DNA of 64,000 nt from Escherichia coli (GTDB lineage: Bacteria > Pseudomonadota > Gammaproteobacteria > Enterobacterales > Enterobacteriaceae), in the NCBI RefSeq assembly GCF_045037415.1, contig NZ_CP173438.1, one strand, 5' to 3'. The position numbers were made by a program, and so were the translations under genes. Positions 2,963 through 42,534 of this stretch are shown one piece after another. Each line of letters starts with the position of its first letter. Position 1 is the first letter of the stretch. Under the pieces are notes generated by a model. It was not told where the DNA came from. It saw only the letters and a list, made by a program, of their open reading frames with translations, and did not search any database.

Positions 2963-3741
2963 AACCTGTTCCTTATTCTGTGAACTTCAGGTGACATTAA
3001 AGCTTTACTCCTAATGGAGAAACGACGCAATCCCAACTCAGTTAAACAGGTAAATATTAGTCTGGTCATTAGTAAATACAATTAATCAATTGCTCTTGGT
3101 TATCATATGATTTCAACTGTATTTATAAGAAAATAATGTACTGATTTCCCATATTGAACAAGTGGTTAATATATGTAAAGCATTTTATTAACATTAGGTT
3201 GATTGTTGCCTTTCTTTGTAGTTAATTAGTTTGTTGTGCGGTAAGTGTTTGTTTAAAAATGGCTTACCTGGTATTGCATTAAAGCGATTATTTATAGCAG
3301 ATGATTATTTACGGTGAGTTATTTTAACTGTACGCAACATCCCATTTCGATTATTCCTGTTTCATTTTTGCTTGCCAGTGTAGCGAAAAATTTTTTAACA
3401 GATTGAAATACACCCAAAACAAAAGTATGACTTATACATTTATGTTAAGTAATTGAGCGTTTTGTGTGATCTGCATCACACATTATTGAAAATCGCAGCC
3501 CCCCTCCGTTGTATGTGCGTGTAGTGACGAGTACAGTTGCGTCGATTTAGGAAAAATCTTAGATAAGTGTAAAGACCCCCTTCTATTTGTAAGGACTTAT
3601 TAAACCAAAAAGGTGGGTCTGCTTATTGCAGCTTATCGCAACTATTCTAATGCTAATTATTTTTTACCGGGGCTTCCCGGCGACATCACGGGGTGCGGTG
3701 AGACCGCATAAAAATAAAGTTGGTTATTCTGGGTGGGAATA
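2963..3741 (+). promoter_or_regulatory. flhDC upstream regulatory region and long 5' leader (no IS element present)
   Basis: About 780 bp AT-rich intergenic region between uspC and flhD; position corresponds to the class I flagellar master promoter region; individual binding sites not mapped. Confidence 0.5.
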
Positions 3742-37024: not shown

Positions 37025-37325
37025 ATGATCATTTCAAGACCAAATATTGATTCTGCAATTTCGGGACGTTACACTGTCTCCGCACCTTATAAAGCGGGTG
37101 CCGGGATTGGCGTCCTGAAATTGTCAACGGCGATGTATGACGCGCCAGCGTCTTTTTTATCGTCCGCATTTGCTCACATCCAGATTATGGTGGGCTGGGC
37201 GGGGGCACCGAAAGGTGCGCCGGTTCTCCGTTGACGCCGGTTACGCCAACCCCGTCCAGTTCACCACCAGTGAAATTGGCGTTTCCGGTGGTGGAAGTTT
37301 TTCACTGTCAACGGAGGCTGCCATC
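37025..37325 (+). repeat. about 300-bp leader repeat, copy 1 (terminator-like hairpin plus GAAA-tetraloop stem)
   Basis: Direct repeat of 37685-37984; the first about 60 nt are near-identical (atattgattctgcaatt.cgggacgttacactg...accttataaagcgggtgccggg); contains gacgcgccagcgtc followed by T6, and gcaccGAAAggtgc. Confidence 0.5.
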
Positions 37326-37688
37326 ATGGCTACTGTCCTAACTTCCCCATTCCTAAAAATCGAAGTCGTCAACGGCAAGGCCGTTATTTTCTCCCTGCAT
37401 GTTGCCTGCCATTTCAAGCGCATGCACCAGAACATCGTTGACAAAATCGAGTATCTGAACTGCTCACGCGAGTTTTTTACCCGCAATTTCATACCGGGTA
37501 CTTATCACATCTACGGTGACTCCCTGCGTGGTTATTACATCACCCTTGATGGTCTGATGATGCTTCAGCTTGGGTTAAGTCTGCGCACAATGCGGTACTA
37601 CGAGAGCTGTATTGAAGCATTCCATGAGGCTGAAACCGTCCAGGGTCACTCCGCGTTCCGTCGTAATCAACGGGAGGTGCACCTATGA
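37326..37688 (+). CDS. Rha-family regulatory protein (short form)
   Basis: Start placed at MATVLTSPFLKIEVVNGKAVIFSLHVACHFKRMHQNIVDKIEYL... behind a GGAGG Shine-Dalgarno; the Rha N-terminal pattern parallels the next gene. Confidence 0.55.
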   Translation: MATVLTSPFLKIEVVNGKAVIFSLHVACHFKRMHQNIVDKIEYLNCSREFFTRNFIPGTYHIYGDSLRGYYITLDGLMMLQLGLSLRTMRYYESCIEAFHEAETVQGHSAFRRNQREVHL

Positions 37689-37984
37689 TCCGCCACCAGC
37701 ATATTGATTCTGCAATTCCGGGACGTTACACTGCTCAGGCACCTTATAAAGCGGGTGCCGGGCGTGGAAACCCGAAATTCAATATAGAGCACAACCGCGC
37801 TCATGCGGTTTTTTCGTGTCATGAGCATCGTTACACCCAAATTATGGTGGGGCGTGCAGGGCCAACTTCGGTTGGGCCGGGTTCTATGTTGACCGGTATT
37901 TCCACCCCTGTACGTCTCACCACCTATATGGTCGTGGAAAGCCTTGGTGGTGAGTTCATTGAATTCAACATAGGGGCTGTCACC
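37685..37984 (+). repeat. about 300-bp leader repeat, copy 2 (terminator-like hairpin plus UUCG-tetraloop stem)
   Basis: Direct repeat of 37025-37325; contains ccgcgctcatgcgg followed by T6, and ccaacTTCGgttgg; in frame with the downstream Rha ORF, so it could alternatively be coding. Confidence 0.45.
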
Positions 37985-38536
37985 ATGACTACTCTCCCAA
38001 CCCAATCTCACCCTGAAATCACGATTATCAATGGTCGCGTTGTCACCACATCTCTTGCAGTAGCTAATTACTTTACTAAACGGCATGAGCGGGTTTTAGA
38101 TAGAATTAGAAACCTCGAATGTTCCGCTGAATTTACTGAACACAATTTTGTGTTAAGTGAATACACCGACGCATCAGGCCGCAAACTCCCTTGTTACCAA
38201 ATCACCCGCGACGGTTTTGCGTTTCTTGCCATGGGCTTCACTGGTAAACGTGCTGCCCAGTTCAAAGAGGCATACATCAACGCCTTTAACCTGATGGAGA
38301 AGAGTTTATCAGGTGCCGATGCGTCTGATATGTCAGCTGTCGCACGAAACGCCAGAGGCGTATACCTGCATTTGCGTGAAATCCATCAAATCTGGACAAG
38401 CCAGCTTTATCCAATGCTTAAGGCCGTTGAATCTCCGCTGGCTAGCAAACTGTACGACCGTGTTGGTGATGCTGTTTTTGGCGCTGCACTTGTTGATTCC
38501 AGGCTGAATGGTTCTGACAAGGAGGTTCGCCCATGA
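37985..38536 (+). CDS. phage regulatory protein Rha
   Basis: ORF 37685..38536; Rha-like segment EITIINGRVVTTSLAVANYFTKRHERVLDRIRNLECSAEF...YQITRDGFAFLAMGFTGKRAAQFKEAYINAFNLME; start placed at MTTLP behind an AGGGG Shine-Dalgarno. Confidence 0.65.
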   Translation: MTTLPTQSHPEITIINGRVVTTSLAVANYFTKRHERVLDRIRNLECSAEFTEHNFVLSEYTDASGRKLPCYQITRDGFAFLAMGFTGKRAAQFKEAYINAFNLMEKSLSGADASDMSAVARNARGVYLHLREIHQIWTSQLYPMLKAVESPLASKLYDRVGDAVFGAALVDSRLNGSDKEVRP

Positions 38537-38727: not shown

Positions 38728-38948
38728 TCCGCCACATCGTTAATTCCCTGTATCACCGATACAACCGTTGCCCCCGTGTGGGGCAGTGGTTCGCCACCAG
38801 CAACGGTCACGTTCTGCGGGTTTGCCTAGTCAACGCTGAAAGCCAGAAAGTCGTGTGCGAACTACAGGGGCGTAGCTACACCATCAGTTACCCTCTGGCG
38901 GTATTTCTGTCTGGAAAAATGTTTAAGCGTCTGGGAGGTGTGGCGTGA
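38724..38948 (+). CDS. hypothetical small phage protein
   Basis: 74-aa ORF, overlapping-stop packing. Confidence 0.35.
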   Translation: MIRHIVNSLYHRYNRCPRVGQWFATSNGHVLRVCLVNAESQKVVCELQGRSYTISYPLAVFLSGKMFKRLGGVA

Positions 38949-39244
38949 ACTGTTTTCAGTTTGTGTGCGGATGTGCTTTCGATAACCCGATTCAGCGCCT
39001 AATTATGTTGCGTGTTTTGATGTCGGGTTCTTCAGACGGTGAAGGCGAGAGAGTTATTGATCATCAGGTGCTTGCTGATTTCTGCTGTTGTTCTAAGCAA
39101 GCGATATTCAGGGAAACCCTGGCACTGGAAAGAGCTGGTTATCTTCATATCCGAAAAATTGCAACGCTTACTATTGATGCAAAAGCCAGACTACAACCTG
39201 CGCGTGGCTACACAATTCTCATGCCGCGGAAGGAGGTTGTATGA
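38945..39244 (+). CDS. hypothetical protein, possible DNA-binding
   Basis: 99-aa ORF directly upstream of the replication module. Confidence 0.35.
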   Translation: MNCFQFVCGCAFDNPIQRLIMLRVLMSGSSDGEGERVIDHQVLADFCCCSKQAIFRETLALERAGYLHIRKIATLTIDAKARLQPARGYTILMPRKEVV

Positions 39245-40227
39245 GCCGTTACGCCCCCACACCGGAAGTTATGGCTATTGGTCAAATTAATATTTCCGGC
39301 AATGTTACACCTGCGAACTGGTGGAAATATATTCGACTACCCAGTGGGCGTCCGGATGCGACGGCTATCGCTCTGCTTTCAGAGATCGTTTACTGGTACC
39401 GCCCGACAGAGGTCAGGGATGAGCACACCGGAGCGTTGCTGGGATATCGCAAGCGTTTTCAGGGCGACAAACTGCAAAGAAGCTACCAGGCGTTTGCTGA
39501 GCAGTTTGGTTTCGGGAAAAGGGAAACCGCAGATGCGCTGAAGCGTCTGCGCGATGCAGGGTTTATTACTCTGGATTTACGCACGGTGGAAATGCTCGAT
39601 GGGGTGAAATGCAGCAATATTTTGTTTGTCGGGATCAACCCACAGGCAATTGCGGCCATCACCACACCTTCTTCTGTTTCGCCAGAAAGTAACAGCAATA
39701 ATGCAATCAGCGATACAGCTATTACGTTAAAACGGAACACCCCCCGACGTCATAACGGAACAGGGGATACGCCGAATGTTGATACAAATACAGAGATTAC
39801 TACAGAGATTACAACGGAGACTAAAAACACTATTGATGCATCCGCTGACGCGTCTGCGCGTTCTGCCCGACAGGAATATTCACCGGAATTTGAACAGGCC
39901 TGGCAGGAATATCCCAAACGTGCTGGTGGCAATTCCAAGTCAGCAGCCTTCAAAGCCTGGAAAGCCCGTATCAGGGAGGGAATAAAACCGGAGACCATGC
40001 TTGATGGCGTGAAGCGGTATGCCGCCTGGGTACGTGCTACAGGAAATACCGGCACACAGTTCGTGAAGCAGGCTGCGACGTTCTTTGGACCCGATCGTCA
40101 CTTCGAAGATTACTGGCAACAGCCAGCCGCTCACGGAGGTGGGCGACAGCGACAGGTCGATGTCCTGGCTGGCCTGGGAGCCATGTCTGACAAATTCGGT
40201 AAATCCAGTAACAAATTGACATTCTGA
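39241..40227 (+). CDS. replication initiator (lambda O-like position) with internal iteron-like repeats
   Basis: 328-aa ORF preceding the DnaC-like and DnaB-like genes; linker region TEITTEITTE encoded by the direct repeats cagagattac(ta) and cagagattac(aa). Confidence 0.55.
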   Translation: MSRYAPTPEVMAIGQINISGNVTPANWWKYIRLPSGRPDATAIALLSEIVYWYRPTEVRDEHTGALLGYRKRFQGDKLQRSYQAFAEQFGFGKRETADALKRLRDAGFITLDLRTVEMLDGVKCSNILFVGINPQAIAAITTPSSVSPESNSNNAISDTAITLKRNTPRRHNGTGDTPNVDTNTEITTEITTETKNTIDASADASARSARQEYSPEFEQAWQEYPKRAGGNSKSAAFKAWKARIREGIKPETMLDGVKRYAAWVRATGNTGTQFVKQAATFFGPDRHFEDYWQQPAAHGGGRQRQVDVLAGLGAMSDKFGKSSNKLTF

Positions 40228-40228
40228 G

Positions 40229-41137
40229 GTGACAGCGATGATGACGATTGACCAACGTGAGAAACAAACAAGACTACAGGCGCGAATGGATGAGTTACGG
40301 GCAGAAATGGATGAGTTACGGGCAGAGATTGCATTTGCTCAGAAGGGCGAAAAGCCATGGCCTTATCGTTCCTGCCTGATGCGTGAAGGTCGCGGATATT
40401 GCGAAAAACACGGTAAATATCGTACGCATATACTGGTGTGGATCGATCGTAATGGCGAGGACAGAGAAAAAATTTCATGCTGCCCTGACTGCTTGATCGC
40501 TGAGGCCAGTGATTTGACCATGGAACTGTCGTCCCTCAAGGCGGAAGAACTGACTGATAACGCCGGAATTGCTCTGCGTTTTCGGGACTGCGAGTTTGAT
40601 AATTATCTGGAGGTTAATCCTGACGCAGCCAGAAATCTTGCGGCCTGTCGCCGCTATGCGGAGAACTGGCCAGATATGCTGGAGAACGGTACCAGTCTTG
40701 TTATGACCGGCAGTTGCGGTACCGGGAAAAATCATCTGGCGGTATCAATGGCAAAACACATCATCCGTAACTATCTGGCCAGTGTGGAGATCACCGACGT
40801 GATGCGCCTTACCCGGGCTGTGAAAAACTGCTGGCGGAATGACAGTGAAAAAACAGCGGATGACGTCATTGAGCATTATGCGTCACTGGATTTGCTGATT
40901 GTCGACGAAGTCGGCGTTCAGTTTGGCAGTGCGGCTGAAATGGCCATTTTGCAGGAAATTATCAATGCCCGGTATGAGGGTATTTTGCCAACTATCCTGA
41001 TCAGCAACCTTTCACCGGAAGAATTGTGGGCGTTCATCAGTCCCCGGATTGCCGACAGGATCACCGATGGCGGGCGCAACTGGTTGTCGTTTAACTGGCC
41101 CAGCTACCGTTCTCGTATCGGAGGTGTTGCCGCATGA
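40229..41137 (+). CDS. DnaC-like helicase loader (AAA+ ATPase)
   Basis: 302-aa ORF with Walker A GSCGTGKNHL and Walker B LLIVDEVG. Confidence 0.75.
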   Translation: MTAMMTIDQREKQTRLQARMDELRAEMDELRAEIAFAQKGEKPWPYRSCLMREGRGYCEKHGKYRTHILVWIDRNGEDREKISCCPDCLIAEASDLTMELSSLKAEELTDNAGIALRFRDCEFDNYLEVNPDAARNLAACRRYAENWPDMLENGTSLVMTGSCGTGKNHLAVSMAKHIIRNYLASVEITDVMRLTRAVKNCWRNDSEKTADDVIEHYASLDLLIVDEVGVQFGSAAEMAILQEIINARYEGILPTILISNLSPEELWAFISPRIADRITDGGRNWLSFNWPSYRSRIGGVAA

Positions 41138-42534
41138 CCAGCCAGAACACCCCGGCATGGCGTAACGATGACCTGGAAGGCGCTGTCATCGGTGCGTTTT
41201 TTCTGCGTGGGGCCGATCCGGAAGTGATGGATATTCTGGCCACACTTCCGGCGGATGTATTTTTTGTGCGTCAGTACCGGGATATTTACGCGGGGATTTG
41301 CAGACAGGCTCGCATATCCGGCGTCATTGACCCCGTACTGCTGTGCAATGAGATGCCGGAACTTGCCCCGGTGATTACCGACACCGGACGCAAAACCTGG
41401 GTGAAGTCTTCACTGGAGCACTATGTCGCAGCGTTGCGGCGCAATGCCGCACTGCGTGATGCAGAAAAAACACTGACTGAAGCATTACAGAATTTACGTG
41501 ATGCGTATACCTGTGAAGCAGCCGAGGATGCCCTGAAGGATGCGCAGAACATGATGGCCTCACTGTCGACCGGAAAGGGCGTCATTCAGCCGGTTCACAT
41601 TGATGATGTCCTTCCGGAAGTGGTCGACCGTGTTGAATGCCGCAATCAGGGACTGGAGAAATCCAGGGCGCTGATGACCGGTATTGATGAACTGGACGCA
41701 AAAACGGGCGGTATGGAGCCCGGAGACCTGGTATTCATTGCCGCCCGTCCTTCGATGGGGAAAACCGAACTTGCGCTGGACATCATCGACAAGGTGACTG
41801 AGCAGGGGCATGGCGTGCTTCTGTTCACCATGGAGATGGCGAACATCCAGATTGGTGAACGTATGGTGTCTGCTGCCGGTGGAATGCCGGTATCCCGTCT
41901 TAAGTCTGTTGCCCGTTTTGAAGATGAAGACTGGGCGCGTTTCTCGCAGGGCGTGGGACGAATGACGGGGCGTAATATCTGGATGGTGGACCAGGCAAAC
42001 CTGACCATTGATGAGATATGTGCAACCACGAAGCACCACCGGATGAAGCATCCGGAAACGGCGCTGGTTGTGGTCGATTACCTCGGCCTGATTAAAACCC
42101 GCAGCACGGGGCGTCACGACCTTGCTGTGGGGGAAATCTCAAAGGGACTTAAAAGCCTGGCAAAATCCGGCGGTTTTCCGCTGATTGCTCTGAGCCAGCT
42201 CTCCCGTGGCGTGGAATCCAGACCCAATAAACGCCCAATGAACTCGGACCTGAAAAACTCCGGGGAAATCGAGGCGGATGCCGACATCATTCTGATGCTT
42301 TACAGGGAGGAGGTATACAACCCGGAAACTCAGGCCAGAGGCATAGCAGAAATCAACATCACGAAACAGCGTAATGGCACGCTCGGGACCATTTACCGGC
42401 GTTTTCATAACGGACATTTTCTGCCTGTGGACCAGGAGAGTGCCCGGGTTCTTTCCACACCAATGCAACAGCCCCAGCCGCGCAGATACAGCAACAAACG
42501 AACTGACAGCAGTAAGATGGAGCGTTTCTTTTGA
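41134..42534 (+). CDS. DnaB-family replicative DNA helicase
   Basis: 466-aa ORF with Walker A ARPSMGKTELALD and DnaB-like C-terminal domain motifs (VVVDYLGLI, LSQLSRG). Confidence 0.85.
   Translation: MTSQNTPAWRNDDLEGAVIGAFFLRGADPEVMDILATLPADVFFVRQYRDIYAGICRQARISGVIDPVLLCNEMPELAPVITDTGRKTWVKSSLEHYVAALRRNAALRDAEKTLTEALQNLRDAYTCEAAEDALKDAQNMMASLSTGKGVIQPVHIDDVLPEVVDRVECRNQGLEKSRALMTGIDELDAKTGGMEPGDLVFIAARPSMGKTELALDIIDKVTEQGHGVLLFTMEMANIQIGERMVSAAGGMPVSRLKSVARFEDEDWARFSQGVGRMTGRNIWMVDQANLTIDEICATTKHHRMKHPETALVVVDYLGLIKTRSTGRHDLAVGEISKGLKSLAKSGGFPLIALSQLSRGVESRPNKRPMNSDLKNSGEIEADADIILMLYREEVYNPETQARGIAEINITKQRNGTLGTIYRRFHNGHFLPVDQESARVLSTPMQQPQPRRYSNKRTDSSKMERFF

Follow-up and report, generated by a model that had tools for sequence, protein, structure and literature searches.

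A candidate replication origin inside the initiator gene of an Escherichia coli prophage: lineage-specific 23-bp repeats next to a conserved 12-mer array

Introduction

Where does replication begin in a prophage whose initiator gene carries short tandem repeats in its middle? We considered this question for an Escherichia coli prophage that forms the context of a segment of contig NZ_CP173438.1 (the whole 64-kb stretch analyzed is hereafter the window, and positions refer to it unless another sequence is named). The replication initiator gene (39241..40227, plus strand; an open reading frame [ORF] matching phrog_270) encodes a 328-aa protein with an N-terminal winged-helix domain (N-domain), a linker predicted to be disordered, and a C-terminal helical domain (C-domain). 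The linker-coding DNA contains an array of 12-bp repeats (39789..39824, plus strand). In the lambda origin (ori), four 18-bp iterons are bound by the N-domain of the O protein, and the C-terminal part of O handles the helicase loader. By analogy with lambda, an original prediction made from the sequence of the window described the 12-mers as iteron-like repeats in an O-like gene that may mark the phage origin.

Our data suggest that the replication origin very probably does lie within the linker-coding middle of the initiator gene. We also lean slightly toward a division of roles in which 23-bp units just upstream of the 12-mers are the iterons, and the 12-mer array is an element on the unwinding side of the origin and not a set of specificity iterons.

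Results and discussion

The 12-mer array in the window

Tandem Repeats Finder (TRF) located one array in the initiator region, at 39789-39820 (period 12, 2.7 copies, 90% matches, score 50, unit TACAGAGATTAC). The full array consists of two perfect units and a degenerate third, TACAGAGATTAC TACAGAGATTAC AACGGAGACTAA, in frame within the ORF at 39241-40227 and encoding TEITTEITTE (aa 184-193). An AlphaFold (AF2) model built on 47 sequences gave predicted local distance difference test (pLDDT) scores above 90 for aa 1-141 and 212-290 (above 95 in the C-domain) and below 55 for aa ~145-211, the stretch predicted to be a disordered linker. The 12-mers sit in this low-confidence linker between the two confident domains. 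The repeats named in the original prediction are real and placed as it had described. From the window alone they are only modestly above chance: TACAGAGAWTAC, with at most one mismatch, occurs in 64 kb only at these two sites (0.19 expected), a count of two was reached in 4 of 100 shuffles, and only two arrays in the entire window have a TRF score of at least 50, where dinucleotide shuffles averaged 0.275. They become unambiguous once other genomes are compared.

The comparison of repeat number among homologues that had been proposed as a check gave one to four full units in 87 close relatives (two in 72, three in 13, four in one, and one in one), and the N-domain homologues examined carry the repeats. 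Just past the array, at ~39861-39866 (ASADAS/ARSAR), a 6-bp indel (GCACCA, encoding 'AP') is absent from the window and a few identical copies and present in most relatives.

The array and its flanks (39775-39814) form the least stable 40 bp of the gene, at -44.5 kcal/mol versus a mean of -56.2 (standard deviation 3.9, a difference of ~3 standard deviations), and the earlier remark that no obvious AT-rich tract follows the repeats was inaccurate in effect. Among lineages picked by the 12-mer motif, instability of the array reached a median 96.5th percentile in phages of medium or high GC content and was not distinctive at 29-35% GC. We propose the array as a candidate element resembling a DNA unwinding element (DUE).

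Constraint on the linker at the DNA level

A codon alignment combined the window gene with 11 homologues from Salmonella, Pectobacterium, Serratia, Yersinia, Pseudocitrobacter, and metagenomes. The homologues were picked for the similarity of their proteins, which are 54-74% identical to that of the window; the range over all 12 is 54-84%. Synonymous-codon identity, defined as codon identity among pairs sharing the same amino acid, was 0.80-0.92 over aa 160-197. It was lower on both sides, at 0.30-0.50 across the N-domain and 0.35-0.69 across the C-domain, where most values fell between 0.40 and 0.60. The linker-coding DNA under this peak (~39718..39831, plus strand), which we propose as the origin core, is constrained as DNA independently of the protein that it encodes.

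The 12-mer itself shows the same constraint at higher resolution. A position matrix from 55 units in 19 protein-selected genes, including those of Geobacillus, Bacillus, Acinetobacter, and Eggerthella phages and a Bacillota metagenome-assembled genome (MAG), reads T-A-C-A-G-A-G-A-N-T-A-C. Its four third-codon positions hardly vary, while the free position is one of the second-codon positions; this pattern reverses the one expected of protein-level selection, which argues that the 12-mer DNA, and not the peptide, is selected. Codon choice is constant across phyla (ACA GAG AnT ACT) while one encoded residue varies. Furthermore, the array encodes TEIT in most lineages but is read in another frame in L232 (2020-2080), as YRDYNRDY (YRDYNRDYYGDYNRDY), and in L233 (2100-2150), as YKDYNKDY (YKDYNKDYNKDY).

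These patterns bear on the simplest alternative, an ordinary slippage-prone repeat that encodes a flexible Thr/Glu-rich linker and has no function as DNA. Copy numbers of one to four among close relatives and the predicted disorder of the linker would both be expected of such a repeat, yet it would explain neither the codons held constant across phyla around a changing residue, nor the use of the same DNA to encode YRDY in another frame, nor an orphan copy that persists outside any intact gene. The reading-frame and codon data exclude a purely protein-level repeat, and we regard this alternative as extremely improbable.

Alternatively, the conserved DNA could have another cis function, as an RNA element, an overlapping gene, an autoregulatory operator, or a transcriptional roadblock. 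Conservation proves constraint at the level of nucleic acid and leaves the function unspecified, and mechanically called ORFs do overlap the region on both strands. However, the predicted RNA fold was no better than that of shuffled sequence (z = 0.06), Rfam returned only a spurious snoRNA (E = 0.11), and no promoter-like site was seen; we rejected a promoter or terminator. The constraint is confined to ~110 bp and stops short of the full length of the overlapping ORFs, on which ground we rejected an overlapping gene; nor would such a gene similarly tolerate changes of 12-bp copy number and lineage-specific 23-bp units. A cis function of this kind is therefore very unlikely. No DnaA boxes or integration host factor (IHF) sites were found in 38900-40300.

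The upstream 22-23 bp repeats

The 12-mers do not stand alone: three units of 23 bp lie directly upstream, on the same strand, and had gone unlisted in the original prediction. Unit A (39720..39742) has the core TACGTTAAAACGGAAC at 39723-39738, one mismatch from the family consensus TACGTTGAAACGGAAC, and is read T-L-K-R-N-T. Unit B (39743..39765) has the core GACGTCATAACGGAAC at 39746-39761 and is read R-R-H-N-G-T in another frame. Together they make up direct repeat D17, with 88% identity over 16 nt at a spacing of 23. A degenerate third unit, GATACGCCGAATGTTGATACAAA (39766..39788), abuts the 12-mer array; its register comes from relatives, and AATGTTGATACAAATACAGAGA is identical in a Bacillota MAG homologue of 39% aa identity.

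In relatives, three to four repeats of 22-23 bp period stand immediately upstream of the 12-mers, as in L100, where TACGTTGAAACGGAAC occurs four times at intervals of 23 bp, and in Geobacillus phage PT9.1, with four GACGTTnnAACGTCAGGGGTG units. A period of 23 bp does not make up whole codons, so the motif appears in three reading frames (PTLKRN, YVETE, and LRxD). In one of these phases a TTGAAA would bring TGA into frame; none of the 11 copies in that phase has it, versus 17 of 22 copies in the other phases. The degeneracy of copies in that phase, unit B among them, points to stop avoidance. The repeat cores are near-palindromic, as expected of sites bound by dimers. The upstream repeats vary by lineage (for example GGGGAAAGTCCATTCCG, AAGGGCGGAAC, and TTACGTTGAAACGTAA) and covary with the N-domain, while the 12-mer remains constant. 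By these comparisons, the 23-bp units at 39720-39788 are likely the iterons of the initiator.

Distribution across phages and plasmids

The 12-mer consensus, TACAGAGANTAC, is nearly invariant in phages of Enterobacterales, Acinetobacter, Bacillus, Geobacillus, Staphylococcus, and others. When IMG/VR was scanned for exact matches to a pair of tandem units, at least 120 contigs with GC contents of 0.29-0.61 came back, and in these lineages the array lay in the middle of an ORF in every case with an intact ORF. The two-part architecture is conserved: in 35 of 38 diverse lineages, two to five 12-mers directly abut three to four repeats of 22-23 bp period that are unrelated between lineages. The two main groups of N-domains found with the array are homologous (hhalign probability 95.6%) at just 15-22% identity. 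Among the top 150 matches to the N-domain profile, 80 of 138 full-length proteins have at least two strict tandem units, and many others have degenerate or alternative-frame units. A genome-contig scan gave five loci and a protein-based viral scan returned close relatives only, and divergent DNA was obtained protein by protein.

A BLAST search with the 36-mer matched 119 isolated phage records, nearly always within a gene whose annotation is replication initiator. Among the hosts are Acinetobacter, Bacillus, Klebsiella, Staphylococcus, Pseudomonas, Erwinia, Burkholderia, Vibrio, and Synechococcus, and Stx phages also belong to the matches, as do 68 plasmids. One plasmid, pBSG3 (L231, NC_014104.1; an 8.4-kb rolling-circle Bacillus plasmid), has an orphan cassette at its positions 700-842 without an initiator gene, and at least three near-identical plasmids have it likewise. 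The cassette comprises three to four PM1-type iterons (CTTTACCTACAGGGAAAGA), three TACAGAGATTAC units, and a C-domain coding remnant of ~60 bp; it could be a phage-origin decoy, a site for phage-dependent amplification, or a gene remnant.

Searches of the accessible literature for the 12-mer DNA motif or its peptide found one unrelated primer and noise, though a prior description in closed-access work is possible, and papers on the Eru of non-lambdoid Stx phages do not discuss iterons. While an origin inside the initiator gene is classical, an invariant 12-mer array beside variable iterons across phyla is new to the searchable literature. Readings of the 12-mer as a primase trinucleotide, a DnaA-trio-like element, or a DnaD TnnT-like site were also considered; matches this short could be due to chance.

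Comparison with known origins

The locus shows the features of intragenic origins of the lambda and SPP1 type: a location in the linker (the repeats correspond to aa 160-195), direct repeats with a period of ~20-24 bp, an adjoining melting-prone tract, and DNA-level constraint. In lambda, four iterons at 39034-39118 of its genome, spaced 20-24 bp apart, are followed immediately by an AT-rich tract, all inside O; two iterons together with this tract are enough for unwinding (PMC7466680). Like lambda ori, the window has its candidate origin in the linker-coding middle of the initiator gene, likely iterons spaced 20-24 bp apart with dyad symmetry, a melting-prone tract downstream in the direction of transcription, and a C-terminal part presumed to deal with the helicase loader. 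Unlike lambda, it has an initiator outside Pfam Phage_rep_O, a helicase module of DnaC-like and DnaB-like proteins (P and host DnaB in lambda), two good iterons instead of four, and on the AT side a precise cross-phylum tandem 12-mer in place of an A-run. The AT-rich tract after lambda iteron 4 (L228, 519-565; CACAAAAGACACTATTACAAAAGAAAAAAGAAAAGATTAT, encoding TKDTITKEKRKDY) loosely resembles 12-mer arrays (TACAAAGATTAC, KDY). Because the alignment of this tract with the 12-mer is unconvincing, we claim positional equivalence and not homology.

In Bacillus phage SPP1, gene 38 contains oriL, which consists of AB boxes bound by G38P and an adjacent DUE; 356 bp of it are enough to support replication in vitro (PMC5737612). 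Like SPP1 oriL, the candidate origin of the window lies in the linker of the initiator gene and would have repeats followed by an AT-rich unwinding element. G38P belongs to PF09524, a C-domain family also present in several 12-mer-bearing relatives; the window protein has no PF09524 match. SPP1 also differs in its N-domain and repeats (GAAAAAGACAC-type, ~11 bp) and lacks a TACAGAGANTAC array.

Two plasmid systems offer further parallels, which are architectural and rest on plasmid origins as generally described. Iteron plasmid origins (RK2 oriV, F, pSC101, and R6K) combine iterons of ~22-bp period with an AT-rich DUE containing tandem 13-mers, and plasmid Rep proteins are reported to bind one strand of the DUE. 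The likeness to the window lies in a winged-helix initiator, an iteron period of 22-23 bp, and tandem 12-13-mers on one side of the iterons as the opening region, which in the window is a proposed one; unlike the window, plasmid origins lie outside the rep gene and usually depend on host DnaA boxes. In RepA_N plasmids (pSK41, pAD1, and pLS32), oriV lies in repeats in the center of repA, between a DnaD-like winged-helix N-domain and a host-specific C-domain. Repeats inside the initiator gene, between a DNA-binding N-domain and a C-domain, are common to both, but the repeats differ, and general Pfam scans, none aimed at RepA_N, turned up no RepA_N match.

Iterons or unwinding element?

The placement of an origin inside the initiator gene, as originally proposed, draws strong sequence-based support from the synonymous-site peak, the conservation of the array in alternative frames, and the lambda/SPP1 arrangement. 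The label 'iteron' for the 12-mers is probably wrong. They are near-identical beside unrelated upstream repeats and alongside N-domains of 15-22% identity, and their sequence does not change along with DNA-binding specificity as that of iterons, strictly defined, should. We read them instead as an unwinding-side element because their order and polarity are those of lambda ori and SPP1 oriL and because nowhere in the gene is helix stability lower than at the array. Their counterparts would then be the AT-rich tract of lambda, the DUE in SPP1 oriL, and, in iteron plasmids, the 13-mers.

The sequence and model data show the constraint on the DNA, the conserved two-part architecture, the domain layout, and the local instability; from these features we infer initiator binding, unwinding, helicase loading, and the start of replication at this site. 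Dimers of the winged-helix N-domain would bind the roughly palindromic iterons of 23-bp period at 39720-39788, and the resulting nucleoprotein complex would strain the adjoining 12-mer array (39789-39824). The array would open, and its separated strands would receive the DnaC-like and DnaB-like proteins of the phage through the C-domain. Taken as a whole, from origin location to two-part mechanism, we consider this explanation reasonably probable.

Several observations weigh against this explanation. Conservation at 11 of 12 positions goes far beyond the needs of passive melting, and in phages of 29-35% GC the 12-mer is no more AT-rich than the rest of the genome; for both reasons the 12-mer may be a sequence-specific protein site, double- or single-stranded. 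In SPP1, short tandem units of ~11 bp stand at the matching place in the gene 38 linker and are presumably the AB boxes described for oriL (PMC5737612). No more than two good iterons are present in the window, beside one degenerate unit, and the pair alone is not significant. One relative (L102) has a decayed array. The IMG/VR set was chosen by the 12-mer motif itself, so only the sets selected by protein similarity are unbiased.

Some of these points favor a different assignment, in which the 12-mers are true initiator-binding repeats, either ancestral iterons or a second class of site, bound by a part of the N-domain conserved across the superfamily, with the 23-bp repeats adding lineage specificity. 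Every 12-mer-bearing initiator has a homologous N-domain, 11 of 12 positions are conserved as they would be in a protein site, and the short repeats of SPP1 gene 38 occupy an equivalent place. In lambda, O is reported to bind single strands of AT-rich origin DNA (PMC7466680). However, the motif stays invariant as N-domain identity falls to 15-22%, and a putative recognition-helix segment varies among subfamilies. The 12-mers are direct, non-palindromic, and tightly tandem, and it is the neighboring repeats whose 22-23 bp period and dyad symmetry are typical of DNA bound by winged-helix initiator dimers. The 12-mers also sit where lambda and SPP1 have their unwinding tract. Initiator-binding 12-mers seem unlikely on this balance, though they are the alternative we take most seriously.

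A broader idea builds on the proposed unwinding-side position of the array. The tandem TACAGAGANTAC could be an undescribed cross-phylum origin element, a sequence-specific site for a step common to the superfamily of winged-helix phage and plasmid initiators (~2,700 representative clusters in one N-domain group). Such a step might be the binding of one strand of the opened DNA by the initiator, or the entry of helicase or primase. The element would act independently of host, iteron sequence, and type of helicase loader, would be sited right after the lineage-specific iterons, and would serve as the joint at which specificity modules are shuffled against helicase-recruitment modules. We offer this idea tentatively, as conceivable but short of probable.

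Domains of the initiator and their exchange

The 328-aa protein matches the PHROG 270 family, 'replication initiation protein', at 3e-75. No domain was matched in Pfam (E <= 0.01) or NCBIfam; the Pfam Phage_rep_O profile (PF04492) was unmatched, and PHROG 'O-like' families were matched weakly only (7e-7 and 1e-4). The description of the gene as O-like therefore holds in function and fails in family. RefSeq labels identical copies as hypothetical protein or 'LvrA C-terminal domain-related protein' (WP_000092417.1).

The N-domain (aa 1-141; 39241..39663, plus strand) is presumed to bind the origin and has the AF2 fold H-H-strand-strand-H-H-wing. Foldseek and hidden Markov model (HMM) searches against PDB profiles returned generic winged-helix proteins only, all weak. 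Among them were the DnaD N-domains 2v79 and 2vn2 (DnaD at Foldseek rank 47), and because these matches are weak we assign the N-domain to no family. Phages of Geobacillus, Acinetobacter, Bacillus, and Eggerthella carry homologues at 43-55% identity, and a profile of the window-type N-domain collected 2713 representative proteins. Three long proteins (P0121, P0129, and P0158; 643-728 aa) contain two copies of the winged-helix N-domain.

The C-domain (aa 212-290; 39874..40110, plus strand), defined from the AF2 model and a match to phrog_1701 'DnaD-like helicase loader', is presumed to recruit the helicase or its loader. It matches neither PF09524 (Phg_2220_C) nor PF07261 (DnaB_2), families found in 6 and 5, respectively, of 47 proteins that carry a 12-mer array or are close to the window protein. 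In three E. coli relatives (L006-L008; AR_0017, PU-1, and MZ1211), the initiator gene lacks downstream dnaC- and dnaB-like genes and its last ~35 residues are swapped for another tail. Because the tail differs where these genes are missing, it probably contacts the phage helicase module.

The DNA of the C-domain is >90% identical to that of Stx phages and phiP27, whose N-domains differ. Homology with the Stx-phage initiators begins at query position 550, which is exactly the first 12-mer, and homology with phiP27 begins just past the array. More widely, two or three N-domain groups are paired around the array with at least 14 C-domain groups, including PF09524 and DnaD-like domains. Such exchange could mean that the array is kept mainly as a patch of homology for recombination between phages, joining N-domain and iteron modules to C-domain and helicase-loader modules, with no direct role in initiation. 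Yet second-order selection would probably not keep 11 of 12 bases constant through Proteobacteria, Firmicutes, and other phyla, nor pin the array beside the final iteron in each lineage, and crossovers at this point are an expected by-product of any conserved sequence. We consider maintenance for recombination very improbable.

Initiators that share a window-like C-domain but have other N-domains carry linker repeats of their own. They include L17 of phiP27 (L003, ~2990-3040) and PF13730-type relatives (P0074 and P0081); one type has two copies of AAACATGATCCGCAAG at 21-bp spacing (KHDPQ) and the other has EPVKEPVNEPVNE. These repeats are probably the origins of those types. On our protein list, P0102 bears an additional repeat unit.

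Prophage setting

The initiator gene was matched in 479 of 5426 complete E. coli genomes, chromosomal in every case and with many copies 100% identical; strains Ecol_AZ146 and R12 are examples with a 100% identical prophage. At least 80% of the gene is present in 219 of the 479. The early-right region runs from a LexA-type repressor through Rha and ash regulators, small ORFs, a 99-aa ORF, and the 328-aa ORF to DnaC-like and DnaB-like helicase genes and antiterminator Q. The DnaC-like helicase loader gene (40238..41137, plus strand; coding coordinates transferred from the RefSeq annotation of L001) matches PF01695 IstB_IS21 (4e-14) and phrog_50 (1e-87), and the DnaB-like replicative helicase gene (41134..42534, plus strand) matches PF03796 DnaB_C (1e-73) and phrog_19. 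Early in the DnaC-like gene, 21 bp are perfectly duplicated in tandem (40285-40326, two copies of AATGGATGAGTTACGGGCAGA), encoding MDELRAE twice. The duplication is polymorphic, present in 31 related loci and single-copy in 20.

Upstream of the initiator gene, a small ORF of 99 aa (38945..39244, plus strand), annotated in E. coli relatives, matches phrog_4617 'replication initiation protein' (2e-29), and its stop codon overlaps the initiator start. ORFs of 101-105 aa that end at or overlap the initiator start were called in three Salmonella/Serratia-type loci. The product of the 99-aa ORF may be an accessory origin protein.

Further upstream (37025-37688), a 1-bp insertion relative to E. coli strain 20332 (an extra T at ~37224; CCGGTTCTCC versus CCGGTCTCC) splits an 'ash family protein' gene into two ORFs, reflecting either a frameshifted pseudogene or a sequencing error. 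The neighboring genes at 37025-37234 and 37685-38536 open with similar N-termini, RPNIDSAISGRYTVSAPYKAGAGIG and HQHIDSAIPGRYTAQAPYKAGAGRG, which suggests that an ash-like N-terminal module was duplicated and fused to differing C-terminal parts (ash and Rha-type).

Conclusions

Origins have been mapped experimentally in very few phages, and sequence comparison here yields a precise candidate in a widespread family of E. coli prophages. One stretch of DNA in these prophages carries two constraints, with iterons read in three frames under apparent stop avoidance and a 12-mer motif read in two. The arrangement suggests a general rule for a large superfamily of initiators: variable iterons, followed by one invariant 12-mer array. 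The orphan cassette of pBSG3-type plasmids may be a natural example of an origin decoy or of a phage-dependent plasmid. If the 12-mer is functional, it would mark a mechanistic step common to phages of Gram-negative and Gram-positive hosts, and it would enable the prediction of phage origins and the design of origin-decoy (Per-type) resistance and of phage-dependent plasmids.

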